Program-made: the position numbers and the translations under genes
Virus record (IMG/VR): IMGVR_UViG_3300043496_000120
Coordinates: 1 to 59,071 of that record
DNA: 59,071 nt
Origin: a virus
Strand: one strand, 5' to 3'
Shown: in pieces, positions 1-59,071 of the stretch
Layout: each line of letters opens with the position of its first letter
Position numbering within the stretch: the stretch's first letter is position 1
Notes under the pieces: model-generated
Database searches by the model: none
Seen by the model: the letters and a program-made list of their open reading frames with translations, nothing else
Told to the model about the DNA's origin: nothing

Positions 1-127
1 GTTCGAGGGCGAGCCCGCGATTGATGTCCTCCTGCGAAAAGTTCTGCTCGCGCAGCGTGCCGTTGACGTTCGTCTCTTTGATGAGGCGATCGGCACGACG
101 CGCGGCGGCATAGAACTCCCACAACGG
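1..127. repeat. terminal direct repeat identical to 58945..59071 (contig-end overlap; sequence closes into a 58,944-bp circle)
   Basis: both ends read base by base: 1-127 = 58945-59071. Confidence 0.95.
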
Positions 128-3100
128 CATGAGGCTTTCGCCGCCCGCGTCCTGGTACAGCGGACGGAACACCTCGAACATGCCTTTGCGTCCGGCCACA
201 GGTTGAAACGAGCCGTCCTTGTACTCCGGGACGCCGAGCTTCATAACGGCGGCCATGACCGCGTGACCATTCTTCGCCAGGTTGTACATCTTGTACGGCG
301 ATTCCGCGGCGTCGCCGAGGAAACCGCCGAACACTTCGCGCTCGATACGCGCGACCTGGTTGCCGGCGTCGAGCATGCCTTGCTTGAAACCTTCCCAGCC
401 ATCGCGGAAGTTCGACGCCTTCACGTCGGCGAGCCAGCGCCGCGCACGATCGCCGAGCGTCAGGTCTTCAGGCGGCGTCTTCATCGTGCGCGCCATCGAC
501 TCCTCTTGTTCCTTCGTGCCCTTCGCGCGCGCTACGCGATAGCGCACGTCGTCGACGGCGGGCTCGTCGTTCTTGTCGTAGTGGAAACCGCCATCGAGAC
601 GATGCCGCGGCGTCACCAGGTCGACCGGCGAACGCGAGTCATGCGACGGCGACAGCCCTGCGCGCTGGTGGTCGTGCGCGTTGTACATCACTTCGCGCAG
701 CTCGCTCGGCGAGTAGTCGACATCGCGACCCATCTTGCGCGACGTCGCGTTGAACCAGTCGTTGAACTTCTCGAACAGCGTCTTGCCGCGGCCGGCGGGG
801 TCGAGCTTCGCGAGATATTCTTCGGCGACGAGACGGCGGCCCTCGGGCAGTGATGCGTTCGCGCGGTAGTCGCGCGCGATCGAGGCGCGTTCCGATTTCG
901 GGATCGCGGACCATGCGCGATCGAGGAAATCGTTCAGCTCGTGCTTGTTGAAAATCTTGCGCAGACCGCCATGGCCGAGATGTTCTTCCGTCAGCGTGCG
1001 GTACAGCTCTTTCGGCGACGTCATCTTGTCGGCGATCACATGCACCTTGCCGGTGGCGCCGTCGTAGATGCCATGCACTCGGCCGCGGAACTCCGGCGAG
1101 ATGTTGTTGCGCAGTCGCGCCGGCAGGTCGGCTTCCGACTGATGCACTTCGACGTGCGTTTCAGCGGCGTGCCACTTCAGCAGTTTGACGAGGCCCTTCG
1201 CTGCCGACTTCGACATGCCTGGGCCGTCGTAGGCTACCTTCTGCCGAGGTGCGCTTTCGGATTTTTCGGCACCTTCGCCGGCCGGAACATCGGACTCGGC
1301 GCCTTTATCGCCTGGCTCGCCTTCGCCCGGACGCCCGGCATCTCCGACGTCTTCGGTTGCGGTGTCATGAACGGCTTCGGGCTCGCCTTGCGCGAGAGTT
1401 TCTTCAGCGGGAACAGGCTGCTCACGTTCGCCTCCCTCGGCGTGTGCGACTGGAACATCATGACCGAGCACGGTGACGTGCCCTTCGTTGCGGTAACCAT
1501 CGAATCCGTTCGCGACGACCTGGCGCTCGAACTCGTTGATGACGTGATCCTCGTCCATCGGCAGGCCGCGCGCTTCGACTTCAGCGCGCGCGCGCTGCAT
1601 CAGGTTGCGCGTGTCGCGGCCGAGATCGTAGACGTTGCGCAGCACCGCGCTCGCGTGACCATCGGGCACAGCCTGGCCGCGCTGCACTTCGTCGAGCACG
1701 ACGCGTCGACGCGAAGGCAGGCTCGCGTTGTCGAGCGACAGCCTGGCGAGCGGTTCGCCGTCAAAGCCGCGAGTGCCGGCCGTGACCGTCGTTCCGTCAG
1801 TCTCGGTGCTGGCGTGAACTGTGCTCGCATCCGGCTGCTGGTGACGCAGTGTGACGCGCGGCACGTTGTCTGAAACGGGTCCGGTCGCCGCCTCATCGCG
1901 GCCCGCGCCCTTCGCCCAGGTCTTGAACTCCGGCGCCGTCATGGAGCGCACGCGGCCCATGCCTTGCCAGCCCTTCGGGTATTCGCTCAGGTACGCTTGC
2001 TCGGCCGCGCGCTGGTTGCGGAATCCGAGCATGACCTTGTGCTCATCGAAGCCGCCATCGGGCTTGTGCTGGTCGACCACGAAGACCTGGCGCGTCGGAT
2101 TGTGCGGCTGGTCGCCGAGCAGAACGTCGAGATGATCGCCGTCCGCGCCGAGCGTGCCGCGAATGTAGCCGTAGTGGTGATTCATCACGCGCGAGAACGG
2201 ACGGCCGTCGAGGCCGATGCCGCTGCGCGTGGAGCCGCGCGGGTTCTCGATCGAGATGTCGAGACCCTGCGCGCGAATGTGACCCTTGCGATAGTTGCCT
2301 ACCGCGATTTTCGACGTGCTCGGCTGGCCCTCGGTTAGCGGGCTTGTCTCTGCAACGTGAGCTGCTGCATCGACTGAGAGAGGAGCCGCGCGCTGTCCGG
2401 CCGGTTCTTCTCCAGCCACTTCTCCACCGACTGCTGCTCCTCGCGTTTCATCCGCAGGAACGCGCTCGCCATTAAGCTCGGTGGCAGCGCGATCAGCTTG
2501 TTCGCCGTCACTCTCACGTCCAAGACGATACCTCGTGTTCTCTAGTCCGACATCTCCATCGGATCGCACGGCAGCTCCAGGATGTTGCCCCGGTTCCACG
2601 CGCTCTCCGCCAGCCTCAACCACATCGCCGGTCCCTCGGCCAGCTCTTTGCTCACGTAGAACGGAAGCCGTCCATACTGCTCTTTTAAGCGAGCTGCTAC
2701 CTGCTCCAGATGAGCGGATGACGGTGTCTCCCGCGATGGTGCGGAAGTCTGCGTTTGTGACGGGCTTCCCGTCCGACCACTCGAATCGTCCATTGTCAAA
2801 GTTGAAACGCATGCGCGATAGCGCGGGATGACGATCGTACACGTTCTCCATCGCCGTGTGTGCGAGCACGCCGGTATTGTGTTCAGCCGCCGCTTTGCTT
2901 CGGCCCGCCATCCATAGCCCCGTGAGGCGCTGCGTCTGAGCGGGTTCGAGATGGTGCGTCGAGCCAGTGCGGCCGGCGCTGGCCGCCATGTTCTCGGTGC
3001 GGCGGAAGTTGTTGATCGCGGTGAGGCCGCCGACGTCGGGCGATGCCTTGAAATTGTTGCGGTGTGCGAACGTGTTGATGATGTGGTAGAGGCGCGCGCC

Positions 3101-5425
3101 GTAGCCGCTGCCCTCGCGCGCGCGGCTGATGTCGAACTGCATCTTGCCGGTCTCGCCGTCGACGTGCAGCGCTGCCGGCGTCGTCGGCGCGCCGTAGCGG
3201 TCGCCGGTCGGCATGTGGATCATGTACGTCTGATCGCCGTGCTCGTTCGTTTCGCCAAGCTGCTCGACGTCGACGTCCGGCGCAATGGCCTTCGCGATGC
3301 CGGCGAGAGTCGTTTCACCTTCGGGAGCGTCGGGAAGCTGACGCGCACCAGGTGCTTGCGTCGCCTCGTGGACAGCGCGGCCGAGCGCCGGAAAGTCAGC
3401 GCTCACGCCGCTCACCGGCTGGTCGAGCTCTGGCGGCATCTCGGCGTCGCCGCTGATATGGTTTTCGATCAGCGCGGCGGGGTGAACCTCCTCCTCGCCG
3501 AGCCGGAAACGAGGCTCCGCGTCGTGGTCGCCGACGAAGCCCGGAAGATCTGATTCGTGCGGCGGCTCGGTGCCGAATACCTCCGCGCCGGCCGCTTGCT
3601 CGCTCTGCTGCTCGGCCGCGCTCGACTCCGGCGTGACGCCCATCTCGGCCGCCTCCGGGCTCGTCGCCGCCTGGTGCGCCGCGTAGGCTTCCTCGTCGCG
3701 GGTCTGGCCGGTCTTCGCGATATGGCGCAGCTCCGCGATCGTGGAGAGGCCGCTGCGCTTGCCGTCGTTGAACTCGGTGAGCGCGTAGTCGGCGCGAGCG
3801 CGTGCTTCGGGCGCGTCGCCGATGTCGTCGAGCACCTTCGAGAAGCGGGCTTCCCAGCCCGCCTGCTGCGCCGTGGCGGCCTTCGCCTCCTCGGCCGAGC
3901 CGAAACCCGCTCGCGCCGCGGTGACGTCCTCCGGCCGCTGCACGTCGGCGTGCGGGCTCACGTGCGCCGCGCCCATGCCCATGCCGAGCGCAACGTCGCT
4001 CGCGACATCGGCCGCGTCTGAGGGCGCGCCAGCGGCCGCACGCTGCGAAGCGCCGAGCGCACCCTGCGACGCACCGCCCTGGGCGAGCCGGGCCATCAGC
4101 GAGCCGGGCGCTGCCAGCGCGGGGGTGTTGAAGATGATGTTCGAGCCCAGCTCGCCAGCGAACTCCGCGCCGGATGGGGCGTCGCCCTCCTGCGCGCGCG
4201 CCAGGGCGCCTTCCGTGGTCGTGGGCACTGCCATGGCCGTCGCGCCAGGCAGGTTCGCTTCTACGGCCGCGGCGGCGGTCTGGAGCGCGGTGAGATCGGC
4301 CGGCGCCGTGAGGGTCGCCAGCTCCGGGTTGCGCGTCGCCATCGCGAGCGCGAACGCTGGAGCCATGTCGCCGAGCTTGGCGACGAGCTTCTGCGCGAAG
4401 CCCTGCGGCACCGATCCTGCGCGCAGCTCTTTCGCCTCCTCGACGTCCGGCTGCACCAGGTTGTTGAACACCCAATCCTGAGCCGCGTGTTCGTCGCCGC
4501 CGAATTCCTTCGCGATCGAATCGAACAGCATCGCGGGCGGAGCCGCGACGAGCAGGTTCACGGTCGCCGGAATTCCCATGGCGCCGGCCGCAAGATGCGT
4601 CGCGCCCATCTCGCCGAGATCAGCGGCGTCGGACGACAGGCCGCCGATCTTGTCGAGGAATGATTGATCCGGCTGCGTTTCAGGATTGTCGCCCTGCAAC
4701 GATGACGGCAGCGGGACGTCCGTGTCGTGGTGCAGATAGAAATCCGACTGCTTCGCCGGCAGCGCGTTGACGCCGTACATCTCCAGCGCGCGCGATGCGT
4801 CCTGGCCGCTGAGCTGCGCGAGAATCGAGTCGCGCTGGTACGGCAGATCGGCCGCCTCTTTCGAGATGACGTCGCGTGCGTAAGCGCGGCGCTGATCCTC
4901 GGGCATCATCTCCGGCGGCGTCGAGTCGTAGACCTGCTTGTAGCGATCCGACGCCATGAGCTTTTCATGGTTCATGCCGGCGATGATGTCGCTGGCCTTC
5001 GTGTCGGTCATCGGATCGTCAGGGCCTTGACCGGCCATTTGCGACAGCACCGCGTCGATGCGCGCCAGGCGCTTCGCCGAGGTCGCCGCTTTCGCCTTGG
5101 TCTCGACGTCGGCGTTCGGATCGCTGCCGCTGTCGATGTCAGTCAGGTACGGCGCGCGTTTCGCAATGAGGCTCGTGAGCGTCGTCGGGTCTGTCGACGG
5201 CATGCTCGGCGCTTCATCGCGCGTGCTCGCGTGATACGCCTCCGACGCGTGATCCTTGAGGTGACCCCAATACTGGCCCCACCAGTCTTCAGGGTCCGGC
5301 GTGCTTTGCGCGGCGAGCGAGTCGAGCGCGCTACCGTAGTCGGACGGCTGCTGCTGGTCGTCGTCCTGTGGCAGCGTGCCGCCGGCAAGTGCAGCGAGAG
5401 AATCGGCGTAAGAGGGAGTCGCCAT
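1..5425 (-). CDS. 5' 1,808 codons of an uninterrupted giant ORF (2,551 codons after circular closure; 3' part is 56714..58944). Virion-associated multidomain, polyvalent-type protein with an inorganic-pyrophosphatase-like domain (~1915..2300)
   Basis: ATG at 5425, directly after the stop of the upstream gene. The frame (first codon base = 1 mod 3) has no stop down to the window edge by hand translation, and the track lists no ORF in this frame, consistent with a missing stop. YGYIRGTLGADGDHLDVLLG resembles the family I pyrophosphatase core. Coding signal leaves this frame in 2335..~2715 (see findings). Confidence 0.7.
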   Translation of the reverse strand, partial: MATPSYADSLAALAGGTLPQDDDQQQPSDYGSALDSLAAQSTPDPEDWWGQYWGHLKDHASEAYHASTRDEAPSMPSTDPTTLTSLIAKRAPYLTDIDSGSDPNADVETKAKAATSAKRLARIDAVLSQMAGQGPDDPMTDTKASDIIAGMNHEKLMASDRYKQVYDSTPPEMMPEDQRRAYARDVISKEAADLPYQRDSILAQLSGQDASRALEMYGVNALPAKQSDFYLHHDTDVPLPSSLQGDNPETQPDQSFLDKIGGLSSDAADLGEMGATHLAAGAMGIPATVNLLVAAPPAMLFDSIAKEFGGDEHAAQDWVFNNLVQPDVEEAKELRAGSVPQGFAQKLVAKLGDMAPAFALAMATRNPELATLTAPADLTALQTAAAAVEANLPGATAMAVPTTTEGALARAQEGDAPSGAEFAGELGSNIIFNTPALAAPGSLMARLAQGGASQGALGASQRAAAGAPSDAADVASDVALGMGMGAAHVSPHADVQRPEDVTAARAGFGSAEEAKAATAQQAGWEARFSKVLDDIGDAPEARARADYALTEFNDGKRSGLSTIAELRHIAKTGQTRDEEAYAAHQAATSPEAAEMGVTPESSAAEQQSEQAAGAEVFGTEPPHESDLPGFVGDHDAEPRFRLGEEEVHPAALIENHISGDAEMPPELDQPVSGVSADFPALGRAVHEATQAPGARQLPDAPEGETTLAGIAKAIAPDVDVEQLGETNEHGDQTYMIHMPTGDRYGAPTTPAALHVDGETGKMQFDISRAREGSGYGARLYHIINTFAHRNNFKASPDVGGLTAINNFRRTENMAASAGRTGSTHHLEPAQTQRLTGLWMAGRSKAAAEHNTGVLAHTAMENVYDRHPALSRMRFNFDNGRFEWSDGKPVTNADFRTIAGDTVIRSSGAGSSSLKRAVWTASVLREQRAGRGTGDVVEAGGERVEPGQHPGAAVRSDGDVGLENTRYRLGRESDGEQADRAATELNGERVPADETRGAAVGGEVAGEEPAGQRAAPLSVDAAAHVAETSPLTEGQPSTSKIAVGNYRKGHIRAQGLDISIENPRGSTRSGIGLDGRPFSRVMNHHYGYIRGTLGADGDHLDVLLGDQPHNPTRQVFVVDQHKPDGGFDEHKVMLGFRNQRAAEQAYLSEYPKGWQGMGRVRSMTAPEFKTWAKGAGRDEAATGPVSDNVPRVTLRHQQPDASTVHASTETDGTTVTAGTRGFDGEPLARLSLDNASLPSRRRVVLDEVQRGQAVPDGHASAVLRNVYDLGRDTRNLMQRARAEVEARGLPMDEDHVINEFERQVVANGFDGYRNEGHVTVLGHDVPVAHAEGGEREQPVPAEETLAQGEPEAVHDTATEDVGDAGRPGEGEPGDKGAESDVPAGEGAEKSESAPRQKVAYDGPGMSKSAAKGLVKLLKWHAAETHVEVHQSEADLPARLRNNISPEFRGRVHGIYDGATGKVHVIADKMTSPKELYRTLTEEHLGHGGLRKIFNKHELNDFLDRAWSAIPKSERASIARDYRANASLPEGRRLVAEEYLAKLDPAGRGKTLFEKFNDWFNATSRKMGRDVDYSPSELREVMYNAHDHQRAGLSPSHDSRSPVDLVTPRHRLDGGFHYDKNDEPAVDDVRYRVARAKGTKEQEESMARTMKTPPEDLTLGDRARRWLADVKASNFRDGWEGFKQGMLDAGNQVARIEREVFGGFLGDAAESPYKMYNLAKNGHAVMAAVMKLGVPEYKDGSFQPVAGRKGMFEVFRPLYQDAGGESLMPLWEFYAAARRADRLIKETNVNGTLREQNFSQEDINRGLALE
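2335..2523 (-). CDS. small ORF (62 aa, helical-looking) in an alternative frame inside the giant ORF
   Basis: TTG start 7 nt after GAGG. Third-position G+C ~89% here versus ~40% in the giant-ORF frame (hand count). Confidence 0.55.
   Translation of the reverse strand: MDVRVTANKLIALPPSLMASAFLRMKREEQQSVEKWLEKNRPDSARLLSQSMQQLTLQRQAR
2542..2799 (-). CDS. ORF in an alternative frame inside the giant ORF. Only the last ~55 codons (below ~2715) look coding. It may be the C-terminus of the upstream module, reached by a +1 shift.
   Basis: ORF track. GC3 ~78% versus ~46% in the giant-ORF frame for 2545..2715. The N-terminal part is junk-like where the other frame looks coding. TAG stop at 2542. Confidence 0.45.
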   Translation of the reverse strand: MTMDDSSGRTGSPSQTQTSAPSRETPSSAHLEQVAARLKEQYGRLPFYVSKELAEGPAMWLRLAESAWNRGNILELPCDPMEMSD

Positions 5426-5428: not shown

Positions 5429-6841
5429 TTAGGTGAACTCGGGCTGCTGCTGCTGTTGTTCGAGATACCAGTCGATGTATCCGTTCGCATCCTGGTCTGG
5501 CATCGCGTCCTGAACCTGAAACTCCGCCTGACGGCGCAGCTTGTCTTGCTGCACCGGGTTCTCCGACGTCGCTAGACGATCGAGCGTCGCGTGCAAGCCC
5601 TGGCCTTCGGGCGATTGCGCGAGCTGCTGCTGCATTTGGCTGTACTGCGCCGACTGATCCATTTGGTCGCTCGGCGTTTCAACGCCGTCCGGCGCTTCGC
5701 TCGTGTCGCCGCCAGCATTCGGGTCGGGCACAGCCGAATCACCGCCGGCCATGTCGGCCACCTGCGCGTTCGGATCGGTTCCGGGGATCGGCGCCTGAGC
5801 TTGCGGGCCGCCGCCTGTTGCGTCTGTGGCCGTTGCCTTCATGTCCGCACCTTGTGGTTCTGCATCGTTGAGAACGTCGGGTGCGTTCGCGCTGGCGAGT
5901 GCGCCAGAGTTTTTGATTCCGCCGGTCGTGTCGCCAGGCGCGGCGATGAAGTCGCTCGGCGACGGCGTGGCGCCGCCCGTTTCAGTATCGGCGGTCGGGC
6001 GCGACGACATCATGCCGTCGATCTGCTTCTGCGGCGCGCGCTTCAGCGTGTCGAGCAGCATGCTCGGATCGGTGTCCGGGTGAGCCTTCAGCGTGTCGTC
6101 GTAAAGCTGCTGGCGATCCGGGCTCAGGTGCGCAGAGTCAGCGCCGGCAGCAGTCTTGTCCGCGGTCGACGTGAAGCCGGCCGACTTGCGCAGGTCGCGC
6201 AGATCGGTGCGCGTCGCAGAGATTTGCGCGTCGAGCGCCTTCAGCTTGTCGGCGCCCTCGGCGGCGGCTTTCGGATCGAGCTTGCTGAGCGGGTTGTTGA
6301 TCTCCTTGTTCAGCTCGTCGCGTTCCTTCATGTACGACGTCAGCTCGGCCTCGGTCGAATGTAGTGCCGTCGCCGCGCGATTCTTTTCATCGGTGGACTC
6401 CGCGCGCTTGTCGCGTTCGCCCTGGCGCGCATCGTCGCGCGCTGACTTGTCTCGATCGAGCGCCAGGTGCGCGCCGGAGATTCCCAGCTCGGCGTTGCGG
6501 TACGCCACTTCGTCGCCGTGCTCGGCCACGCGCCGCGCTTCGTCGGCAGCGTGAATCTCTTTTTCCGTGTCGAGGCGTTTCTGTTCGCGGTCGCCCTCGG
6601 CGCCGATGGTCTTGTCGAGGCGGGCGTTCTCCTCGCCGGAGTGGAAGCGCGCCAGGTTCTCGTCCATTGCACGGCGCGCAGCATCGCGCGCGTCCTCGTG
6701 CTTCTCTTTGCGCTCGTCGTTCTCGCGAGCCTCGTGCATCTTGCCTATCTCGGCGAGGCCACGCGATAGGCCGTCGAGCACATTCGCCCAGCGGTTCCGC
6801 GGTGACGCTTTCAGAAACGGACTCTCGAAGACGGCCATCAC
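5429..6841 (-). CDS. internal-virion/ejection-type protein, 470 aa; charged coiled-coil half plus a P/G/D/Q-rich half
   Basis: ORF track; overlapping start/stop with neighbours; composition; position upstream of the giant ORF. Confidence 0.6.
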   Translation of the reverse strand: MMAVFESPFLKASPRNRWANVLDGLSRGLAEIGKMHEARENDERKEKHEDARDAARRAMDENLARFHSGEENARLDKTIGAEGDREQKRLDTEKEIHAADEARRVAEHGDEVAYRNAELGISGAHLALDRDKSARDDARQGERDKRAESTDEKNRAATALHSTEAELTSYMKERDELNKEINNPLSKLDPKAAAEGADKLKALDAQISATRTDLRDLRKSAGFTSTADKTAAGADSAHLSPDRQQLYDDTLKAHPDTDPSMLLDTLKRAPQKQIDGMMSSRPTADTETGGATPSPSDFIAAPGDTTGGIKNSGALASANAPDVLNDAEPQGADMKATATDATGGGPQAQAPIPGTDPNAQVADMAGGDSAVPDPNAGGDTSEAPDGVETPSDQMDQSAQYSQMQQQLAQSPEGQGLHATLDRLATSENPVQQDKLRRQAEFQVQDAMPDQDANGYIDWYLEQQQQQPEFT

Positions 6842-7923
6842 ATGCCCCCTGGAGGTGCTGCGTTCGGATCGCCGCCGCTACCATCGTCAGGCGGCGGCGC
6901 GTTCGGGTCTGCGTTCGGATCGCCGCCCTGGTCCGGCGGCGGTGCTTGCTGCTGCGGCGCTCCGCCTGGCGCTCCACCTTGCGGCACGAGCCGCGGATGG
7001 CCGCGCGATTGAAAGTCAGAGATCGACGACGGCGGCTTGTAGCGCCCGCTCGCGAGCGCGGCCTTGCCTTGCGCGGCGCGTGAAAGGAAATCGCTGAGCT
7101 GGTTCGGTGAAATCTGATCGCTCGGATTCCAGTGTTCGAGCGCGCCACTGTCGGCTTCGCGCTGGAGCTGCTGCATGTAGAACTGCCGCGCCTCGTCCTG
7201 GTTGTTCAACCCGGAGTCGATCACGTTGTTGCCGAAGTACTGGCACGCGTAGAGCTTCGCCATGCCGAGCAGCTTTTGCTCCTGCGGCGAGTCGGCCGGC
7301 GGCGGATTCTTGATCGCTCCAGACCGCACGCCGATCTCGTACACGTGCGACATGATCTCGTCGGCGCCGTGGTAGAGCACGTCCGGCGGATAGTCGACGC
7401 CCTGATGCTTCGCGTTCGTGAACAGCAGCCACGCGACCTGCGCGGTCGTGCGACCGACAGCCTGGTCCGCCTTCATGCCGGTCACGTTCAAGTGGTCGAT
7501 GATGACGTCGCGCGGCGCCTTGCCGTCTTCGTTCGGCTTGCCGTCTTTGCCGGCGGGTTTGCGCGGATCGTTGATGAACAGCAACGCGCGCGTCACGAAG
7601 TCATCGTAAGCGTGCTGCTCCTGCTGCGATACCTCCGTTTCATCCGCCGACTCCATCACGCCGCTGGTTTGATGCTGCCCGGACGGTCCAGCCGTCACCG
7701 CGCCGGAGTGATCGGCGGCGGCTACTTCTTCGTCGCTGTACTCAGTGCCAGGCGAGGCGGTCGGATCAGCTCCGCCGCCGGCCATGAAGTCGCCGCCCGG
7801 ATCAGCCGCGGCTTGCGCCTCTCCTGAAACGGTCGGGTCCGCACCTTGCGGCGGACCACCAGGCGCAGCACCAGGATCGGCACCGCCGCCCGCAGGTAGG
7901 AAATCGTCAGGCGCGGTTTGCAT
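6838..7923 (-). CDS. hypothetical virion protein, 361 aa, with G/P/D-rich termini
   Basis: ORF track; same operon frame logic. Confidence 0.6.
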   Translation of the reverse strand: MQTAPDDFLPAGGGADPGAAPGGPPQGADPTVSGEAQAAADPGGDFMAGGGADPTASPGTEYSDEEVAAADHSGAVTAGPSGQHQTSGVMESADETEVSQQEQHAYDDFVTRALLFINDPRKPAGKDGKPNEDGKAPRDVIIDHLNVTGMKADQAVGRTTAQVAWLLFTNAKHQGVDYPPDVLYHGADEIMSHVYEIGVRSGAIKNPPPADSPQEQKLLGMAKLYACQYFGNNVIDSGLNNQDEARQFYMQQLQREADSGALEHWNPSDQISPNQLSDFLSRAAQGKAALASGRYKPPSSISDFQSRGHPRLVPQGGAPGGAPQQQAPPPDQGGDPNADPNAPPPDDGSGGDPNAAPPGGM

Positions 7924-9070
7924 CGAGGCGAGCCCTCAAGTCGTTGAAGAATTGTTCGTTGCGCGTCGCACCCTGCGCGAGATTGCGCGCGCCGGTCTGC
8001 GTGGCGCGCTGTGCATTCGCTGCACCCGTGCCGCTCGCCGGCAAGAAGTCGCTGCCCGACGCGGCGCCGGCCGCTGCTGTCGGAAGGTTGTTTTGCTGCG
8101 TCGTGTCGCCAGTGTCCGCGGTCGCGTTCGCATCGAGCGATCCGCCGGCCTGCATCGTGCCGACCGTGGGCGCAACGCCGCCAGCTTGCGCAGGTGCGCC
8201 GGCCTGCTGCGCCGGCTTCTGATCCGCGCCAGTCACGCCCGCTTTGTACACGGCCGCGAGATCGGTGCTGTTGCCCTTCTCGTCCATGCCGAAGTACGCA
8301 CCGCCAGGCCACAAACCTTCTTCCGCGCGCGTCGGTTCTTTCAGCGCGCCGCTGATAGCTTGAAACGCCGTGCTCGCGAACATCAGCTTTTCGCCGGTCG
8401 ACATGCCGCCCCAAAATCCCTTGACGGCTCCGCCCGCTTTCGAGAGGAGACTGGTGCCCGCGCTCGTACCGCTGCCGGCGCCGGTCGCCGCGCCCGTTGC
8501 GTCAGCACCCGCGGTCGTCGACGCGGCTGATCCGTCCGCGGCGTACTGCGTGCCTTCGAGCGGCGACGTGATGCCTGGCAATCCGCCGCCGGCCGTTTCA
8601 GCAGCGGTAGCACCCGCGTCGGCGCCGAAGCCCGTGCCCTCGACTGACGACGTGATGCCCGGCATTCCTTCAGCCGCAGCACCGCCGGCAAGCGCAGCAC
8701 CGCCGCCCGCTTCAGCAGCGCCGAGGCCGACGCCGGCAGCAACGCCACCGGCCGCGGTGAACTCGGCGGCAGACATCGCAGCAGCGCCCGCGCCGTACTC
8801 CGCCGCGGTGGAGATGCCGAGCGCCGCCGTCATCGAGCCTGCCTCGGCCGTGCCGGCGATGGCCGCAGTCGTGCCGGCGTACCCAGCACCCGCAGCGACA
8901 GCGCCCGACTCCGCGGCGACGGCTCCTGTTGCGGCGGGCGCCATGGCGCCAGCGGCGAGACCGGCGGTGAAGTAGATGGCCGCGCAGATAACGATCACCT
9001 TCCAGTACTTCTTGACGAAGGAGCCGACCGCTTTGAACACCTTCTTGATGCCCTTCACTATGCCGCCCAT
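7907..9070 (-). CDS. membrane-anchored G/A/T-rich protein (387 aa, start MGGIVKGIKK, N-terminal TM helix)
   Basis: in-frame ATG at 9070. The upstream part of track ORF 7907..9196 is Arg-rich and overlaps the GNAT gene. Confidence 0.6.
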   Translation of the reverse strand: MGGIVKGIKKVFKAVGSFVKKYWKVIVICAAIYFTAGLAAGAMAPAATGAVAAESGAVAAGAGYAGTTAAIAGTAEAGSMTAALGISTAAEYGAGAAAMSAAEFTAAGGVAAGVGLGAAEAGGGAALAGGAAAEGMPGITSSVEGTGFGADAGATAAETAGGGLPGITSPLEGTQYAADGSAASTTAGADATGAATGAGSGTSAGTSLLSKAGGAVKGFWGGMSTGEKLMFASTAFQAISGALKEPTRAEEGLWPGGAYFGMDEKGNSTDLAAVYKAGVTGADQKPAQQAGAPAQAGGVAPTVGTMQAGGSLDANATADTGDTTQQNNLPTAAAGAASGSDFLPASGTGAANAQRATQTGARNLAQGATRNEQFFNDLRARLDANRA

Positions 9071-9525
9071 GACTGCACCTCTTTTGAAACGGGGATGCTC
9101 AGTGTCACGCCGCGCTTGGTCATGCCATGCGCGACGAGCGCTTTGGTCGCCCGCTCCGTGTCGATGTTGGAATTCAGTGAAATGATGATCTCGCACACGC
9201 GCGGAATCGTGTGCGCCCAGGCGATGCCGAGCTTCAGCAGGTGCCGGCCAAGACCGGGCCTTTCACAGTAGATCAGGTCGTCGACCACCTGCCACTTCGA
9301 GGGCTGCCACCACATCGGCTGCGCCACGAGAATCAAGAAGCCGACGACTTGCTCTTTGTGGATCGCCACCGCGATGAACTCGGTGCGAGATTGTACGGCG
9401 CGCGTGAGGCGGTCGACTGCCGCGCGGAAGTCAATGCCGCTGTACGCGAACGCACCGCGCTGCATCAGGCGATGACCGACGTCGATGATCGCAGGGATGT
9501 CGCCGAGGCGCGCGCGCCGGATCAC
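9058..9525 (-). CDS. GNAT-family N-acetyltransferase (155 aa)
   Basis: GNAT-like layout with an RxxGxG-type acetyl-CoA loop (ERPGLGRHLL). Confidence 0.65.
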   Translation of the reverse strand: MIRRARLGDIPAIIDVGHRLMQRGAFAYSGIDFRAAVDRLTRAVQSRTEFIAVAIHKEQVVGFLILVAQPMWWQPSKWQVVDDLIYCERPGLGRHLLKLGIAWAHTIPRVCEIIISLNSNIDTERATKALVAHGMTKRGVTLSIPVSKEVQSWAA

Positions 9526-35474: not shown

Positions 35475-35502
35475 GGCCTACTCCCGGTTGCAGCGTTTCA
35501 GT

Positions 35503-44141: not shown

Positions 44142-44208
44142 TCTGCTGCGGCTGGCGCTTCGCAAGAGGCGCCAGCATCGGGAAGACCACCCGCGGAGCG
44201 TTTCAATC

Positions 44209-49965: not shown

Positions 49966-50258
49966 CACGACTCGTATTCCGGCAACGAGCGCACGAACGC
50001 ATCGAGATCATCGTTTGGCGCAGAGTAGTGCAGATAACCCGGCTCGTGCGCGACGAAGTAGCGATCATTCCAGCGCGCCACCATCACGGTCTTACTCGGC
50101 TCGCGCCCCAGGTCCATGCCGATGAAACGGAGGTTGTAGAACGAGCCTACCTGGCCGGTGAAGTTCGTCGGCTTCGGCAGATCGAGCAGCGCCGGCAGCG
50201 GAAGCGCCGCGACGACGGCCGCGCTAATGGCGCTGCGAAGGAATTGTCGGCGGTTCAT
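49965..50258 (-). CDS. small exported protein with a twin-arginine signal (97 aa; alternative start 50297)
   Basis: MNRRQFLRSAISAAVVAALP matches the S/T-R-R-x-F-L-K pattern; GGAGAG RBS. Confidence 0.5.
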   Translation of the reverse strand: MNRRQFLRSAISAAVVAALPLPALLDLPKPTNFTGQVGSFYNLRFIGMDLGREPSKTVMVARWNDRYFVAHEPGYLHYSAPNDDLDAFVRSLPEYES

Positions 50259-50460: not shown

Positions 50461-50998
50461 TGACTGAAACGCCCTGCACTTCTTCGAGCTTGGCTTCCCA
50501 ATACTCGTCTTCGGTTTGGCCGTCTTCATTGATCGGCTCGGCGTCCGGGTCGGTCTCGCGCGACGTCGCGGTCTCGTCTTCATCCTCGACCCACGCGCTG
50601 AAGTCGATGCCCTCCAGCTCATCGGCCGCGTTCGAGCACGCCTCGGCGCGCTCTTGCAGCAGGTTACCAGTGTCGCTCTCTTGCAGCGACTCCGGCATGT
50701 TGTTGCGCTTCTCCTCCTGCTCCTCGCCCAGCTCACGCAGACTGCCGGCGATCTCGCCAACAGTTTCTTCGAGCGTGGCGTCGGCCGTCAGCTCCTCGAT
50801 CCGCTCCTCGATCTCGACCAGGCGGCCCAGGTATTCCGAGCGCGTGAGCTGCGATTGCTTCGGATAGGTCTTGCTGAAGCATCTCGTGCCCTTGCCGAAC
50901 CGATTCCGAAACGTCCAGTAGTAGTACGTGTCGCCGACAGCGATGCCAGCGGAGGGCCGCGCCTTGCGGGCGCGTTCAACCTTGTGTACGCGTGGCAT
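50453..50998 (-). CDS. hypothetical protein with an acidic C-half (181 aa)
   Basis: ORF track. Confidence 0.6.
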   Translation of the reverse strand: MPRVHKVERARKARPSAGIAVGDTYYYWTFRNRFGKGTRCFSKTYPKQSQLTRSEYLGRLVEIEERIEELTADATLEETVGEIAGSLRELGEEQEEKRNNMPESLQESDTGNLLQERAEACSNAADELEGIDFSAWVEDEDETATSRETDPDAEPINEDGQTEDEYWEAKLEEVQGVSVSG

Positions 50999-51755: not shown

Positions 51756-51835
51756 GTTGAAACGTTGCCGGCAGAACTTTCCCGCTGCCGGCGCCGGGGC
51801 TGTGTTGCCTATCACCTGATTCCCTTAAGGAGTGG

Positions 51836-52114
51836 TCAAGTCTTCATAGGCGTCCTCCGACGTTTGGTAGCTGGTGCTGGCTTCGCTCCTGGGAGCATGT
51901 CAGCGACGGTGACTTTACCACCCGTCTCCCGCTCCAGCACTGTCGCCAGCAGCCATGAAGCGCGGCGCGTACCTTGGGCGACCTGGTAGAGATGAAACGG
52001 CGTAACATCGCCGGCCTTCGCCAATCGCTCCAGCTCGGGAGCGTTTCGCTTTTTGACGTTGCCACTGCGGGAGTAGCCGTCGCAGACCGTGAGATGCGCA
52101 AAGAGTTTATTCAT
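51836..52114 (-). CDS. Cro/YdaS-like HTH regulator (92 aa)
   Basis: in-frame ATG at 52114; HTH-like segment; position at the divergent promoter. Confidence 0.5.
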   Translation of the reverse strand: MNKLFAHLTVCDGYSRSGNVKKRNAPELERLAKAGDVTPFHLYQVAQGTRRASWLLATVLERETGGKVTVADMLPGAKPAPATKRRRTPMKT

Positions 52115-54164: not shown

Positions 54165-54165
54165 A

Positions 54166-54936
54166 ATGGAAGGCGAGCTGATCCCGAGGGAAGTCGAGAA
54201 CGACGGCGCCGCGCTGGCGATCGTCATGGAGGCCGACGAGCTGTCTGACGCAGCCGGCTACATCGCCATCGCGAGCCCTGGTGAGCTGGAGTTCGCGGCC
54301 GCCGAACTGCGCAACATCGTCACGAAGAAAGACGCGATCGAGGCCACGTTCAAGCGGCTGAAGGAACCGTTTCAGAAAGGTATCGACGGGCTCCGCGCAT
54401 TCTTCGACATGCCGATCAAGCGTCTGAACGCGGCCGAGGCCGAGATCAAACAGCGGATCAACGTGTACCAGGGCCACGAGCAGGCGAAGGCGGCCGAGGC
54501 GCGCCGCGAGATCAGCACCACGCGCGAAGACCGCGTGCTGGAGCTACAAGACAAGGCGGCCGAGGCCGAGGCCGCGTCGATCATCGCGCCGAACGAACAG
54601 CGCGCCGAGTGCCTGGCCGCGCTGGCGACCGAGTATCGCCGGCAGATCGACGAGATCGAGCACGCTGACGCGCCGGTCGGTTCCGTTCCGGTCGTGCCAT
54701 CGGCTGCCGGCGTGTCGCGTCGATCGAATTGGAAGGGCGAGATCGAGGAGGATGGCGGCATCGACAAGCTGTGGGACGCCGCCTACAAAGACGGCACGCT
54801 GCGCAATCTGTTCAAGCTCGACGAGTCGGCGCTGAACAACCTGGCGAAGCTCACGAAGGGCGCGCGCAAGATTCCCGGCGTCCGCTTCTACGACAAGGGC
54901 AGCGTCGCTGTCCGTCGCAACCCGAGGGCCGTGTGA
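54166..54936 (+). CDS. hypothetical coiled-coil protein (256 aa)
   Basis: ATG at 54166 just after the upstream TAA. Confidence 0.6.
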   Translation: MEGELIPREVENDGAALAIVMEADELSDAAGYIAIASPGELEFAAAELRNIVTKKDAIEATFKRLKEPFQKGIDGLRAFFDMPIKRLNAAEAEIKQRINVYQGHEQAKAAEARREISTTREDRVLELQDKAAEAEAASIIAPNEQRAECLAALATEYRRQIDEIEHADAPVGSVPVVPSAAGVSRRSNWKGEIEEDGGIDKLWDAAYKDGTLRNLFKLDESALNNLAKLTKGARKIPGVRFYDKGSVAVRRNPRAV

Positions 54937-55181: not shown

Positions 55182-55666
55182 ACGCCGAGATCAGCGTCGA
55201 CGGACGCTACCGCTACCGCCTCGATCGCGCGCTTGCTGAAACGGGTATAGTCGTCGCCTTCTTTGGCGTGAACCCGAGCCGAGCTGATGCGGAGATCGAC
55301 GACCCGACGTCGCGGAAGTGGAAGTACTTCGCTCGCAAGCTCGGAGCGCGCAAGTACATCGCCGGCAACCCGTTCGCGCTGCGCTCGCACGACGTCAAAG
55401 AGCTGGCTGTCGCGGTCGACCCGATCGGATGGATGAACGAGTGGTACTTGCAGCAGATCATCGCCGAGGCCGACGTGCTCGTTCCGTGCTGGGGCTCGCG
55501 CATGAAACTACTGCCGGCGCTGCGACCGAAGCTCGACAACCTGGCGTCGATGCTCAGCGCGTCAGGCAAGCCGCTCAAGATATTCGGGCTCACGGCGAGC
55601 GGTGACCCGAAGCACCCGCTGATGCTCAGCTACGAAACACCACTCATTGACTGGAGGAGACCATGA
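55178..55666 (+). CDS. DUF1643-family protein (162 aa)
   Basis: RYRYRL...FGVNPSRADAEIDDPT...WG...GDPKHPL pattern. Confidence 0.65.
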   Translation: MNAEISVDGRYRYRLDRALAETGIVVAFFGVNPSRADAEIDDPTSRKWKYFARKLGARKYIAGNPFALRSHDVKELAVAVDPIGWMNEWYLQQIIAEADVLVPCWGSRMKLLPALRPKLDNLASMLSASGKPLKIFGLTASGDPKHPLMLSYETPLIDWRRP

Positions 55667-55908
55667 ACGAAAAAGAATTTCTCGCGCACGTGCGCAAGCA
55701 GATCAAGGGCGCGCCGAGCATTCAGGCGGCGGCTGACAAACTCGGCTGCTCGCGCGGCCAGCTCTCGAACTTTCTCTCGGGCCGGCGACCGGCCAGCGCC
55801 GAGATGCTGCGCGGCATGCGCATGGGCCGCGTGAAGCAATGGGTGTATCTGCCGGTCAAGACCCGGAGGAAAAAGGCCCGTGCAAAGACAGCTCGTAAAA
55901 AGCAGTAA
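55663..55908 (+). CDS. HTH DNA-binding protein with a basic tail (81 aa)
   Basis: AAADKLGCSRGQLSNFLSG helix-turn-helix. Confidence 0.55.
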   Translation: MNEKEFLAHVRKQIKGAPSIQAAADKLGCSRGQLSNFLSGRRPASAEMLRGMRMGRVKQWVYLPVKTRRKKARAKTARKKQ

Positions 55909-56089
55909 CATCAAGTCGGTAGGATACAGCGATGAAACGGCCACTCTTGAGGTGGAGTTCAAGAGTGGCGGAACGTACCAGTACTACGACGTTCCTCGTA
56001 GTGTGTACGACGAGATGATGAAGGCCAGCTCGATCGGCAGCTTCTTCGCCACTCGCATCAAGTCGAACTACCGATCCGATCCTGTTTGA
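55880..56089 (+). CDS. KTSC-domain protein (69 aa)
   Basis: SSNIKSVGYSDETATLEVEFKSGGTYQYYDVP pattern. Confidence 0.7.
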   Translation: MQRQLVKSSNIKSVGYSDETATLEVEFKSGGTYQYYDVPRSVYDEMMKASSIGSFFATRIKSNYRSDPV

Positions 56090-56717: not shown

Positions 56718-59071
56718 AACTGGTCGTGTAGAGAATCGAGGAAAGGACCGTATTGATCCAGCAGCTTGATGCGCACGTCTGTCGCGTTATCGAGCTGCTG
56801 GCGTTTTTCCTCCGGGCCGATGAACGGGTTTTGCATGATCTGTTTCTCGGCCGAGCGAATCTTCGACACGTCGCGACTCATCGCATCGAGCGTCGCGCGA
56901 TTCTGAAACGCCGGTCGACTCATCAGCTCCCGCGCGTGCTCCGTGTCTCCCTGCTGCACCGTCGACTGAAACGACTGAAACGTTGCGTCAGCCTCGGCGC
57001 GCATCTCGTACAGCTTGTCCTCGTACTTCGATCGGTCGCCAGAGTCGCTGTCGCCGGCATAGAACCGCTTCACGACCGGCATATCCTGGAGCCGCTTCGT
57101 CGGCGCGCTCGGCGCCAGGCCCGAAGCTCGGGCCAGCCAGTCGCCGGCATCGAGCGCGTAGACGCCCATGGTGCCGGCGAGCGCGCGTGTCAGGTGCTCG
57201 ACGCGCTGCGGTGAGTTCAGCCAGGGCACCTTGCTGAAGCCGCTGGCGATGGCCTTCGCGGTGACGTGCGTGAACGGCGAGTACTGCGTTTCGGGCAGCT
57301 CGTCGGCCGTCGACGCCGGCACGATCGCGCGCCAGCTCGACGTGTCCTTGTTCGCCCACTGCTCGACGCCCTGGCGGATGATCTGCGGCAAGAAGTTCAG
57401 CCGCATCTCCTCGGTCACCATCACCTGCATGGCGTGCAGCGTGTCGCGCGTCGTGTCGTTTCCGTTCAAGCGCTGCATGATCCGCTCCGGCAGCGAGCCG
57501 AAGACCACGCCGGCCTCGAACGGCTTCGGCAGCTTGAAGTGCTGATCGCCGATGAAGAAATGCCAGTAGCGATCCTTGTCGTCGTTCGACAGCCGGTTGT
57601 AGCGCGGGTCGTCCTGATTCTTCCACGCGTTCGCGATCGTCGCCGCCAGGAGAACGGAGCCGCGCAGCATGTACGACTTGAGCTGCGACGTGTCGCCGGC
57701 CTTGGCGTTCGCCACTCCCGCGCCACGCATGAAACGGTAAAGGCCCTGCATGCCCGCGTTCCAGAACGGAGCCGTGGCAGAGAGAATGCGCGCCGCGGTG
57801 TAGTCGCCGCGCATCGAGTAGTTCAAGATGTCCTGCGCCTGGTACGCCGCCTCCGCCATGGAGCCGCCGCGCGCGAGCACAGACTTCGCGATGGCGATGC
57901 GGCTCGATGCCTCGGCCGCGATGCCGACACGGTTGTAGAAGTCGAGACCCTTGCCGGCCAGGCCGATGATCGTCGTCTTGCCGTAGTTCCGTTCGAGCTG
58001 CGTGCGGACCTTCGCGCCCTGCGTTTCATAGTGCGGAGCGACGCCGACGCCGGCCATCATCAGCTTGCTTACGATCGGATCGCCGCGCACTGAGCTGATG
58101 GCGCCCTTCATGTTGTCGACGAACGGCGTGATCGGCGAGTGTGAGCCCACCCAATTTATGAGCGTGTCGCGGAACCAGGTCGCGGCCATGAAGCCTGGGT
58201 CTTTCGTCACGCCCCAGGTGACGCCGCGCTTCGCGCTCGACAGCACGCCGATCACCTTGCCGAACGAGTCGTGACCCATGGCGCCGATCGTGCGCAGCAG
58301 CAGCGGATCGGTGACGCGGTAGTACTCCTGCTTGCCGTTGCGCATGATCGGCACGACGTCGGGATCGGTCGGCGCAACGCGCTGGAAGACGGTCGACCAC
58401 TGCGCCTTCTCGGCCGGCGTGAGTCTGTCGACCTCGACCGTCGCCCAATGCTTCGACGGCTGGATGTTCGGCGACGCGTGCTGCTGGTGCAGCGCCGAGC
58501 CGGAAAAGAATCCGCCCTTCTCAAGCGCCCGCGCGAGATCGCCGACTGAAACGCTGACGGCCTTGTTCGCCATCGGCACGCGCTCCAGCACCGTACCCTC
58601 GCCCATGTCGAGCAGGCGATTCATGAACTCCTGCTTGTACGTGCGATCGAGCACGTAGGCCGTGTTCGCCAGGATGTTCTCGAACACGTTGTCCACCTTC
58701 TCCTCGCTGCCGGTGAGGCGGCGCGAGTAAATCTTTTGGTTCGCGGTGACCGATCCGCGTTTCGTCTTCGGTGCGTTCGTCTGCTCCAGCTCCTCCATCG
58801 CGCGATAGAACGGCACGTAGAAGTTCGCTTTCCACGACGCCGCCTCGGCGTCAGAGATCGCGCCGCGATCGGCGGCCAGGTCGAGCAGGTGATTGTTGAA
58901 TTCCTGGAAGTCGTCGGCCACCTTCTTGAAGACCGGATACTTCAGTTCGAGGGCGAGCCCGCGATTGATGTCCTCCTGCGAAAAGTTCTGCTCGCGCAGC
59001 GTGCCGTTGACGTTCGTCTCTTTGATGAGGCGATCGGCACGACGCGCGGCGGCATAGAACTCCCACAACGG
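56714..59071 (-). CDS. 3' part (785 codons plus stop) of the giant ORF that continues from 1..5425 across the circle junction
   Basis: track ORF 56714..59068 is open to the window edge. The frame is conserved across the junction (58944 is divisible by 3). Confidence 0.8.
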   Translation of the reverse strand, partial: PLWEFYAAARRADRLIKETNVNGTLREQNFSQEDINRGLALELKYPVFKKVADDFQEFNNHLLDLAADRGAISDAEAASWKANFYVPFYRAMEELEQTNAPKTKRGSVTANQKIYSRRLTGSEEKVDNVFENILANTAYVLDRTYKQEFMNRLLDMGEGTVLERVPMANKAVSVSVGDLARALEKGGFFSGSALHQQHASPNIQPSKHWATVEVDRLTPAEKAQWSTVFQRVAPTDPDVVPIMRNGKQEYYRVTDPLLLRTIGAMGHDSFGKVIGVLSSAKRGVTWGVTKDPGFMAATWFRDTLINWVGSHSPITPFVDNMKGAISSVRGDPIVSKLMMAGVGVAPHYETQGAKVRTQLERNYGKTTIIGLAGKGLDFYNRVGIAAEASSRIAIAKSVLARGGSMAEAAYQAQDILNYSMRGDYTAARILSATAPFWNAGMQGLYRFMRGAGVANAKAGDTSQLKSYMLRGSVLLAATIANAWKNQDDPRYNRLSNDDKDRYWHFFIGDQHFKLPKPFEAGVVFGSLPERIMQRLNGNDTTRDTLHAMQVMVTEEMRLNFLPQIIRQGVEQWANKDTSSWRAIVPASTADELPETQYSPFTHVTAKAIASGFSKVPWLNSPQRVEHLTRALAGTMGVYALDAGDWLARASGLAPSAPTKRLQDMPVVKRFYAGDSDSGDRSKYEDKLYEMRAEADATFQSFQSTVQQGDTEHARELMSRPAFQNRATLDAMSRDVSKIRSAEKQIMQNPFIGPEEKRQQLDNATDVRIKLLDQYGPFLDSLHDQF
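58945..59071. repeat. second copy of the 127-bp terminal overlap
   Basis: identical to 1..127. Confidence 0.95.

Follow-up and report, generated by a model that had tools for sequence, protein, structure and literature searches.

TGAAACG, an evenly dispersed and orientation-blind DNA word of one phage lineage and a possible tag on its duplex genome

Among the described words that are dispersed in many copies through a genome, the uptake sequences of bacteria are one close parallel to the subject of this study. The DNA uptake sequence (DUS) of the Neisseriaceae has the consensus (AT)GCCGTCTGAA or a dialect thereof with a CTG core, and the uptake signal sequence (USS) of the Pasteurellaceae has the core AAGTGCGGT or ACAAGCGGT with AT-rich flanks. 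Other points of comparison are Chi, which works in one direction only and is read as single-stranded DNA; HIP1 (GCGATCGC) of cyanobacteria, an abundant dispersed word selected inside genes; and the stoperators of Cluster A mycobacteriophages and the C1 operators of P1, in which tens of asymmetric sites for a single protein are spread genome-wide. The sites of the last two systems are 13-17 bp long, mostly intergenic and present in at most 40 copies, and the stoperators are oriented with transcription. Chromosomal parS, the site of ParB, is a 16-bp palindrome, TGTTNCACGTGAAACA. Here we analyse the word TGAAACG (CGTTTCA on the other strand) in a 59,071-nucleotide stretch of viral DNA, positions 1 to 59,071 of the IMG/VR record IMGVR_UViG_3300043496_000120, which we call the window. 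An earlier reading of the window from its letters alone, the sequence-only reading, had reported a great excess of this word and had likened it to uptake sequences.

An exact recount over the whole window found 98 copies, 55 as TGAAACG and 43 as CGTTTCA on the plus strand, which corresponds to 1.66 copies per kb or about one per 600 bp. The sequence-only reading had logged about 95-100 copies (about 55 and about 42), and the thirteen examples that it named are all correctly placed, those starting at 204, 1871, 2803, 18059, 31568, 56967 and 56976 being on the plus strand and those at 1157, 2444, 3311, 4676, 18047 and 31556 on the minus strand. The two ends of the window carry an identical 127-bp direct repeat (1-127 and 58945-59071), an assembly overlap, so that the window amounts to one whole genome, circular or circularly permuted, with a length of 58,944 bp; as the duplicated segment holds no copy of the word, the figure of 98 copies per 58,944 bp stands. 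At a G+C content of 64.2%, base composition alone predicts 4.0 copies on both strands, in agreement with the earlier estimate of 4-5, and Markov models of order 1, 2 and 3 predict 8.5, 10.9 and 16.5. Dinucleotide-preserving shuffles of the window (200 of them) gave 8.3 +/- 2.8 copies with a maximum of 18. In coding sequences, as delimited by heuristic gene calls based on G+C by codon position, 84 copies were observed, against 9.3 +/- 2.8 (maximum 20) in synonymous-codon shuffles, 4.7 +/- 2.2 in codon-order shuffles and 6.1 +/- 2.4 when codons were resampled from their usage outside the motif. The excess over chance is thus about 12-24-fold. Neither of the two outcomes that the sequence-only reading had itself named as fatal, shuffles with comparable counts or a recount near expectation, came about, the shuffles yielding 4.7-9.3 copies against 98 in the window and 84 in genes. 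Four null models, together with the sister genomes described below, rule out a compositional or codon-usage artefact.

The excess is also sharply confined to the full 7-mer, as had been claimed. Its 21 one-mismatch neighbours have between 1 and 23 copies each, the most frequent being CGAAACG with 23, and TGAAACG is the sole A/T-rich word among the commonest 7-mers of the genome. The accompanying statement that variants lacking the leading T number about a dozen and lie near the chance level needs correction, since 39 were counted (8 with A, 23 with C and 8 with G), of which CGAAACG stands at about three times its expectation from composition. In the literature searched we found no description of TGAAACG as a motif.

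The copies show no regard for gene boundaries, reading frame or strand. Those inside genes make up 86% and fall in all permitted frames, and the 14 of 98 that are intergenic match the roughly 11% of the DNA that is non-coding, so that the density is equal in the two compartments; this bears out and extends the earlier remark that the word occurs within genes in both orientations and several frames. Within genes 34 copies are sense and 50 antisense. Sense frame 0 would create a TGA stop codon, and hence a ratio of 2:3 is expected if strand is irrelevant, which 34:50 fits. Along the genome the two orientations likewise follow one another at random (51 runs against 49.3 expected). This indifference to strand rules out a signal acting at the level of RNA or transcription. 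It also separates TGAAACG from the operators and stoperators mentioned above, which are longer, fewer and mostly intergenic, whereas here a 7-bp word in 98 copies is 86% genic, at the same density as between genes, and random with respect to transcription. HIP1 differs in another manner, in that it is palindromic and characterises host genomes, whereas TGAAACG is asymmetric and belongs to one phage lineage.

The spacing of the copies, in contrast to their orientation, is far from random. The coefficient of variation (CV) of the gaps between all copies pooled is 0.69, against 0.99 for random placement, and not one of 2000-5000 random sets was equally even. Gaps below 100 bp are depleted (5 against 15 expected), and long gaps are depleted too. 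When the two orientations are taken apart the evenness vanishes: the gap CV is 0.91 for plus copies and 0.84 for minus copies, neither departing from random, with single-orientation gaps of up to 5.0 and 5.6 kb, and permuting the orientation labels over the pooled sites yields similar values (0.82 for plus and 0.85 for minus). Because the evenness exists only in the pooled set, whatever reads TGAAACG would be indifferent to its direction. Strictly periodic placement, such as phasing on a packaging spool, was also considered and rejected, there being no significant period. The longest stretch free of the word (52000-54368; 2,375 bp) spans the genes for RecT and an exonuclease; taken by itself, this gap has no statistical significance.

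A comparison with related phages indicates that selection has acted on the DNA word. Ten loci totalling 164 kb, from at least six phages, were fetched through homologues of the portal and primase; they are partial contigs, with portal identities of 57-74%, primase identities of 60-65%, a G+C content of 62-64% and the gene order of the window. Together they hold 15 copies of TGAAACG, or 0.09 per kb, which is the chance level, against 1.66 per kb in the window. At aligned sites the relatives often encode the same amino acids with G/C-ending codons, for example: 1) FET, TTC GAG ACG in the relatives and TTT GAA ACG in the window; 2) RFI, CGC TTC ATC and CGT TTC ATT; 3) DET, GAC GAG ACG and GAT GAA ACG; 4) SVS, TCC GTC TCG and TCC GTT TCA. 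Hence the word was installed in the lineage of the window by selection at the DNA level, which agrees with the earlier inference that selection acts on the DNA word and not on the protein. At many other aligned sites the amino acids themselves differ, and the alignments thus indicate that creating the word cost this lineage both codon choice and protein sequence. No comparable dispersed word of their own was found in the sister phages; two candidates were rejected, namely TTCGGCAA in the sister locus L002, a coding effect of Phe-Gly-Lys/Asn, and CACCGGAG in L143, which reflects Shine-Dalgarno context. The sisters also dispose of a primase recognition site, since orthologous primases (60-65% identical) occur in phages that lack the motif, and the orientation of the copies has no replichore pattern.

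A search of IMG/VR for the palindrome described in the next paragraph uncovered local iteron clusters only, in two contigs (L098 and L101), and no other dispersed enrichment. In L098 twelve copies of TGAAACG lie within about 200 bp (1990-2192), directly downstream of an open reading frame of 640 residues whose product we take to resemble a primase-helicase, and in L101 the clusters are at 7766-7833 and 13063-13234. The terminase is the only window protein with matches on these contigs, and the clusters look like an origin in unrelated phages that probably share the word by coincidence.

Beyond the seven bases, the sites have a weak but telling context. C occupies position -7 in 60 of the 98 sites and T position -9 in 34; at -1, C (34) and T (29) prevail and G (13) is disfavoured; G or C follows at +1 in 79, and T does so in only 8, TGAAACGT being depleted. 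The T/C-rich 5' flank noted earlier therefore survives as a mild pyrimidine excess at -1, while the strong signal lies farther out, at -7 and -9. A longer hidden repeat or a mobile element was discarded, as no conserved sequence is present in the flanks apart from -9/-7 and +1. When the inverted copy CGTTTCA was scored upstream of each site at spacers from 0 to 25, spacer 5 alone was prominent, with a mean of 2.39 matching positions against about 1.65 at other spacers, and with five or more of the seven positions matching in ten sites, compared with 0-3 sites at the other spacers. The three best palindromes, two perfect and one near-perfect, have the spacer bases GCCG in common, which defines a 19-bp full site, CGTTTCA-GCCGN-TGAAACG. 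From its symmetry, this architecture is most likely that of a two-fold-symmetric dimer site on duplex DNA, with one strong and one weak half. The nicking factor that the sequence-only reading had offered among its alternatives is unlikely in this light, because nicking opposite strands at a distance of 5 bp would cut the genome in two; of the alternatives that it listed, a word recognised by some factor that binds or modifies DNA fits best.

Taken together, the orientation-blind evenness and the preferred inverted partner favour a two-fold-symmetric reader of double-stranded DNA and speak against directional signals, Chi and primase sites among them. The explanation that we prefer, with a probability of roughly 0.45, is that TGAAACG is a selected, orientation-blind tag on duplex DNA, the strong half of a dimer-type 19-bp site, set down once every 0.3-1 kb. 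The phage lineage would have written the word genome-wide, mostly by adopting rarer A/T-ending synonymous codons and partly by amino-acid changes. A dimeric sequence-specific protein would bind CGTTTCA-GCCGN-TGAAACG, and one strong half appears to suffice when the opposite half is weak (T at -9, C at -7). The density of such tags would set phage DNA apart, with one per 0.6 kb against a chance occurrence of one per 7-15 kb in a G+C-rich host, and an activity that binds, modifies or protects DNA at the tags would then cover the phage chromosome and spare that of the host. The logic would resemble that of an uptake sequence, in which either orientation serves and one copy per stretch is enough. 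The reader might be a DNA methyltransferase, which would convert tags into methyl marks, a small helix-turn-helix (HTH) protein of 81 residues, or a protein of the host.

The first two of these candidates are encoded in the window and stand out on comparison with the sisters. The methyltransferase, a fusion with a DUF3560 domain, is the last gene of a three-gene plus-strand block (40755-44141) without a counterpart in the early regions syntenic to it in the motif-free L143, L265, L266 and L267; its C-terminal domain matches the PADLOC models MTase_II and mad2 (E=1e-17) as well as a Pfam DNA methyltransferase. For the HTH gene and the adjoining DUF1643 gene, those sister loci in which the flanking genes are present show no homologue. 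A Lar-like gene is a further one specific to the window relative to syntenic phages, and among the window-specific genes only the methyltransferase and the HTH protein have a predicted sequence-specific DNA function. Under the tag explanation a reader encoded by the phage is somewhat more likely than one encoded by the host. That the phage runs its own self-tagging, with a self-encoded reader (the methyltransferase, the HTH protein or an uncharacterised protein) that tells phage from host DNA by word density, is a more demanding proposition, which we hold to be rather doubtful.

Several considerations weigh against the tag explanation. The readers named are candidates, and the binding of a protein to TGAAACG is itself deduced from sequence. 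A recognisable second half-site is present in just 10 of the 98 sites, so that the dimer argument rests on a minority of sites and on the signal at -7 and -9. Full-length relatives of the methyltransferase reach at best 45-48% identity and reside on conjugative plasmids of Burkholderiales (in Acidovorax, Alicycliphilus, Comamonas, Paraburkholderia and Cupriavidus); plasmid enzymes of this type are usually regarded as general anti-restriction functions, and nothing about them points to a 7-bp target. Neither among isolate phages nor in IMG/VR were homologues of the HTH protein detected. The reader may also be host-encoded: CCWGG occurs 238 times in the window and is absent from loci of at least two sister phages, which suggests a different host. 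Finally, we know of no phage system that works in the manner proposed here.

The difference in CCWGG is part of a wider pattern, the motif having only 0-1 copies per 9-22 kb in L002, L265, L143, L006 and L007. Since the avoidance of restriction sites differs between the window and its sisters, the window probably resides in a different host, which is why a host-encoded reader has to be entertained. The restriction systems that members of the family encounter seem to differ, and with them, probably, the hosts; the plasmid relatives of the methyltransferase give a weak hint of a betaproteobacterial one for the window. Of the sister loci, L005 alone contains CTGCAG and L006 alone contains TTCGAA.

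The most durable of the rival explanations is a specific version of the tag explanation that names the reader, in that TGAAACG would be the target of the orphan methyltransferase and the dense methyl marks a self-signal, for instance one that blocks a nuclease or licenses packaging or repair. The match of the C-terminal domain to methyltransferase models and the lack of homologues of this gene and its two upstream neighbours in the four motif-free sisters speak in its favour, as does the fact that asymmetric targets of 6-7 bp are typical of gamma-class adenine methyltransferases. Yet possession of such an enzyme accounts for the tolerance of sites and not for their 20-fold enrichment, a monomeric methyltransferase leaves the inverted partner at spacer 5 unexplained, the plasmids bearing its closest relatives are of broad host range and point to the general anti-restriction role already mentioned, and specificity is not readable from the sequence of the enzyme. 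We consider this identification unlikely.

Chi, which had been proposed in the sequence-only reading, fares worse. A host signal of this kind, recognised by RecBCD or AddAB, would protect linear or rolling-circle phage DNA, and there are genuine likenesses: Chi too is a word selected in phage genomes to spare DNA, occurs in both orientations in a circularly permuted genome, and has AddAB-type lengths that a 7-mer fits. The restriction to one lineage could also reflect a switch of host, as the differences in restriction-site avoidance suggest. The Salmonella phage SPN19 (L132; NC_019417.1, 1-50000) has E. coli Chi, GCTGGTGG, 19 times in 50 kb where 2.2 occurrences would be expected, 8 and 11 in the two orientations. 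Phages can be enriched in the Chi of their hosts, but the reported median excess is 2.4-3.1-fold, and phages that encode a recombinase select against Chi (Bobay et al. 2013, PMC3784561). The 12-24-fold excess of TGAAACG is 4-8 times larger, and the window has a RecT gene (52215-53282) and a PD-(D/E)XK exonuclease gene of its own. As Chi is one-directional, evenness would be expected within each orientation, and it is seen only when both are pooled, single-orientation coverage being random with gaps of several kb. Reading as single-stranded DNA would moreover leave the inverted partner at a fixed spacer without explanation, and the sister phages have no word of their own. A Chi-like role is for these reasons quite improbable.

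The likeness to uptake sequences has to be divided into its logic and its membership. TGAAACG shares with DUS and USS the roughly 20-fold enrichment of a short word, a density of one per kb or more, occurrence in coding DNA in several frames, either orientation, a spacing evener than random and occasional inverted pairs, and to that extent the earlier comparison is upheld by the pooled CV and the random order of orientations. It does not extend to membership: the enriched word is different from both consensus sequences, its flanks do not extend toward DUS, it is not the USS core, and it is found in a phage whose sisters lack it. One copy per 0.6 kb is also denser than uptake sequences are known to be in any of their own hosts. 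That the window carries an uptake sequence because its host is naturally competent is accordingly very improbable; no integrase was seen among the genes scanned, and accumulation driven by uptake, which needs residence in the host genome, would have no obvious route. When the genomes of 185,579 species, one per species, were scanned for the 19-bp palindrome, at least 120 matches in unrelated taxa were returned, and among the matches listed none was locally enriched, in what was a low-powered scan.

A more remote candidate is Mini-A, a protein related to Spo11 and Top6A. The proposal would be that TGAAACG is the recognition or cleavage site of a two-fold-symmetric DNA-cleaving dimer in need of genome-wide sites. 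The gene matches PHROG 6247 ('DNA topoisomerase', E=1.7e-116), and its product has the motifs RQLYYQ, IIVEKEA, GDHDPSG and SWELDAL, corresponding to the signature RxxYY, Toprim E, DxDxxG and WELDAL. The two genes that flank it here adjoin each other in L002, and L002, L006 and L010 all lack it. Spo11/Top6A enzymes act as symmetric dimers, which suits a palindromic full site, and the Pseudomonas phage NP1, which bears Mini-A, also has evenly dispersed sharp words (see below). The signature defines the Mini-A branch of the A subunits of type IIB topoisomerases (PMC7671362). Against this proposal, L143 encodes a 62%-identical Mini-A at another locus and has no TGAAACG in 20.9 kb and no dispersed word, and the same combination of Mini-A without a TGAAACG-like dispersed word is found in the Xylella phage Salvo, the Salmonella phage SPN19 and the contig L144. 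The family is very large besides, over 7,900 proteins passing a threshold of E<=1e-40, the nearest being only 60-62% identical. Mini-A is therefore largely excluded as the reader, its involvement being highly improbable. Among isolated phages, 84 carry a homologue (47-57% identity), including Xylella phages Sano and Salvo, Pseudomonas phage NP1 and Chi-like phages of Salmonella.

Equally hard to credit is a decoy array, in which some 100 half-sites per genome copy would titrate a regulator, a defence sensor or another DNA-binding protein of the host while the phage replicates: the orientation-blind duplex sites with dimer-type architecture would suit it, and TGAAAC is the core half-site of both chromosomal parS (TGTTTCAC-GTGAAACA) and the Cra/FruR operators (TGAAAC-GTTTCA), but the spacer of 5 bp (2 in parS), the G after the C and the disfavour of G before the T are unlike either, no parS-like site lies in the window within 3 mismatches, TGAAACGT is depleted rather than favoured, and a decoy has no need of even spacing.

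Judged by its gene content, the window is the genome of a phage. It encodes an SU10-type portal, the small and large terminase subunits, an endolysin, a DnaG-zinc-ribbon/VapE primase-helicase, a SNF2/ResIII helicase and a VRR-NUC nuclease, in addition to the recombination genes, the methyltransferase, the HTH protein and Mini-A. The open reading frames 2-5428 and 56714-59071, both on the minus strand, fuse in frame over the junction of the circle into a polyvalent protein of about 2,550 residues with LPD37, InPase and LPD38 domains. No tRNA gene was found in the window. A megablast search against isolated phages gave no nucleotide match, and the isolate relatives of the portal are all distant; a 7.8-kb contig from another sequencing run (SRR35197222) is 100% identical to the window. 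Where the leftward and rightward gene blocks diverge, the intergenic DNA (39197-39329) contains inverted 20-bp repeats built from GGTGGTA, and GGTGGTAA of this region is locally repeated in the sister L143 too; these repeats are probably an operator or origin of the family, distinct from TGAAACG. The genome shows an extreme avoidance of restriction-type palindromes, 30 of the 64 six-bp palindromes being wholly absent: CCCGGG and GGGCCC each have 0 copies against 65 expected, and CTGCAG, CTCGAG, CAGCTG, GGATCC, GGTACC, GTGCAC and TGGCCA each 0 against 20. CTAG is reduced to 9 against 193 expected, and GATC (502 against 193) and CGATCG are in excess. All sites of the word and the candidate readers are listed in Table 1.

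Table 1. Sites of TGAAACG in the window by exact count, followed by the candidate readers; for the sites, minus denotes CGTTTCA on the plus strand
Feature	Position	Strand	Remarks
TGAAACG copy	204..210	+	
TGAAACG copy	1157..1163	-	
TGAAACG copy	1871..1877	+	
TGAAACG copy	2444..2450	-	5/7 inverted partner at spacer 5 (2444-2462)
TGAAACG copy	2803..2809	+	
TGAAACG copy	3311..3317	-	
TGAAACG copy	4676..4682	-	
TGAAACG copy	5675..5681	-	
TGAAACG copy	5978..5984	-	
TGAAACG copy	7636..7642	-	
TGAAACG copy	7825..7831	+	
TGAAACG copy	8361..8367	+	
TGAAACG copy	8594..8600	-	
TGAAACG copy	9085..9091	+	
TGAAACG copy	10092..10098	+	
TGAAACG copy	10546..10552	+	
TGAAACG copy	11235..11241	-	
TGAAACG copy	12102..12108	+	
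TGAAACG copy	13370..13376	+	
TGAAACG copy	14305..14311	+	
TGAAACG copy	14788..14794	+	near-palindrome GGTTTCAcctgcTGAAACG (14776-14794)
TGAAACG copy	15932..15938	+	
TGAAACG copy	16090..16096	+	5/7 partner at spacer 5
TGAAACG copy	16802..16808	-	
TGAAACG copy	17074..17080	+	
TGAAACG copy	17471..17477	+	
Perfect full site CGTTTCA-GCCGG-TGAAACG	18047..18065		copies 18047 minus and 18059 plus; intragenic
TGAAACG copy	18728..18734	+	5/7 partner at spacer 5
TGAAACG copy	20581..20587	-	
TGAAACG copy	21031..21037	-	
TGAAACG copy	21786..21792	-	
TGAAACG copy	22364..22370	-	
TGAAACG copy	23278..23284	+	
TGAAACG copy	23665..23671	+	portal gene
TGAAACG copy	24361..24367	+	portal gene
TGAAACG copy	24594..24600	+	portal gene
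TGAAACG copy	25342..25348	-	portal gene
TGAAACG copy	25460..25466	+	portal gene
TGAAACG copy	26173..26179	+	
TGAAACG copy	26917..26923	+	
TGAAACG copy	27934..27940	-	
TGAAACG copy	28123..28129	+	
TGAAACG copy	28810..28816	+	
TGAAACG copy	28990..28996	-	
TGAAACG copy	29380..29386	-	
TGAAACG copy	30744..30750	+	
TGAAACG copy	31257..31263	+	
Perfect full site CGTTTCA-GCCGT-TGAAACG	31556..31574		copies 31556 minus and 31568 plus; gene boundary
TGAAACG copy	32618..32624	-	
TGAAACG copy	33585..33591	+	within Mini-A gene
TGAAACG copy	33846..33852	-	
TGAAACG copy	34504..34510	-	
TGAAACG copy	34999..35005	+	
TGAAACG copy	35325..35331	-	
TGAAACG copy	35494..35500	-	
TGAAACG copy	36061..36067	+	
TGAAACG copy	36621..36627	+	
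TGAAACG copy	37120..37126	-	
TGAAACG copy	37501..37507	-	
TGAAACG copy	37599..37605	+	
TGAAACG copy	38179..38185	+	
TGAAACG copy	38435..38441	-	
TGAAACG copy	39820..39826	-	
TGAAACG copy	40432..40438	-	
TGAAACG copy	40639..40645	-	GGTTTCA partner at spacer 4
TGAAACG copy	41107..41113	-	
TGAAACG copy	41263..41269	+	
TGAAACG copy	41495..41501	-	
TGAAACG copy	41732..41738	+	
TGAAACG copy	42105..42111	+	
TGAAACG copy	42269..42275	-	methyltransferase gene
TGAAACG copy	42857..42863	+	methyltransferase gene
Near-perfect full site CGTTTCA-GCCGA-TGGAACG	43316..43334		exact copy 43316 minus
TGAAACG copy	43930..43936	-	methyltransferase gene
TGAAACG copy	44199..44205	-	5/7 partner at spacer 5
TGAAACG copy	44605..44611	+	
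TGAAACG copy	45241..45247	+	
TGAAACG copy	45677..45683	-	
TGAAACG copy	46654..46660	+	
TGAAACG copy	46841..46847	-	
TGAAACG copy	47787..47793	+	
TGAAACG copy	48184..48190	-	
TGAAACG copy	49615..49621	-	
TGAAACG copy	50123..50129	+	
TGAAACG copy	50465..50471	+	
TGAAACG copy	51758..51764	+	
TGAAACG copy	51993..51999	+	
TGAAACG copy	54368..54374	-	
TGAAACG copy	55237..55243	+	
TGAAACG copy	55933..55939	+	
TGAAACG copy	56904..56910	+	
Tandem direct pair TGAAACGacTGAAACG	56967..56982	+	copies at 56967 and 56976
TGAAACG copy	57730..57736	+	
TGAAACG copy	58022..58028	-	
TGAAACG copy	58547..58553	+	
DUF3560 + DNA methyltransferase, 643 residues, candidate reader	42210..44141	+	absent from syntenic sister regions
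Cro/XRE-type HTH protein, 81 residues, basic tail, candidate reader	55663..55908	+	adjoins DUF1643 gene
Mini-A (Spo11/Top6A-like), 297 residues, candidate largely excluded	32722..33615	-	signature and comparison

A partial parallel comes from the Pseudomonas phage NP1 (L131, NC_031058.1, 8567-58566; also L141). Here TGACCACA occurs 34 times in 50 kb against 1.9 expected, with a strand bias (10 plus, 24 minus) and a gap CV of 0.72, and GGCTTGCCC occurs 16 times against 0.8 expected, 8 on each strand, with a gap CV of 0.44 (p<0.001). These words resemble TGAAACG in being sharp, genic and evenly spaced, and differ from it in sequence, in being 3-8 times less dense and in having no preference for an inverted partner. 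Neither is enriched in the unrelated Pseudomonas aeruginosa phage YuA (0 and 4 copies, respectively, in 50 kb), and we found no description of either in the literature. Dispersed words of this kind may be commoner in phages than has been recognised.

Chi, DUS/USS and KOPS are each instances in which a selected genomic word exposed a DNA-handling machinery. In the present case a phage pays a clear cost at about 100 places, in rare codons and amino-acid changes, for a word that its sisters lack. With 98 defined sites, three full palindromes, few lineage-specific genes and motif-free sisters as natural controls, the system is directly testable, and the combination of sharpness, orientation-blind evenness and comparison with sisters is applicable to all phage genomes. 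If the phage does run its own self-tagging, this could serve protection, packaging, repair or the destruction of host DNA, and TGAAACG would be to viruses what uptake sequences and Chi are to bacteria, except that it would work in either orientation and would not derive from the host; the evenly spaced words of NP1 suggest that such a strategy may be widespread and overlooked. Should the reader prove to be encoded by the host, TGAAACG would expose a host system that rewards DNA carrying the word; should it be encoded by the phage, it would represent a new viral means of marking its own DNA.

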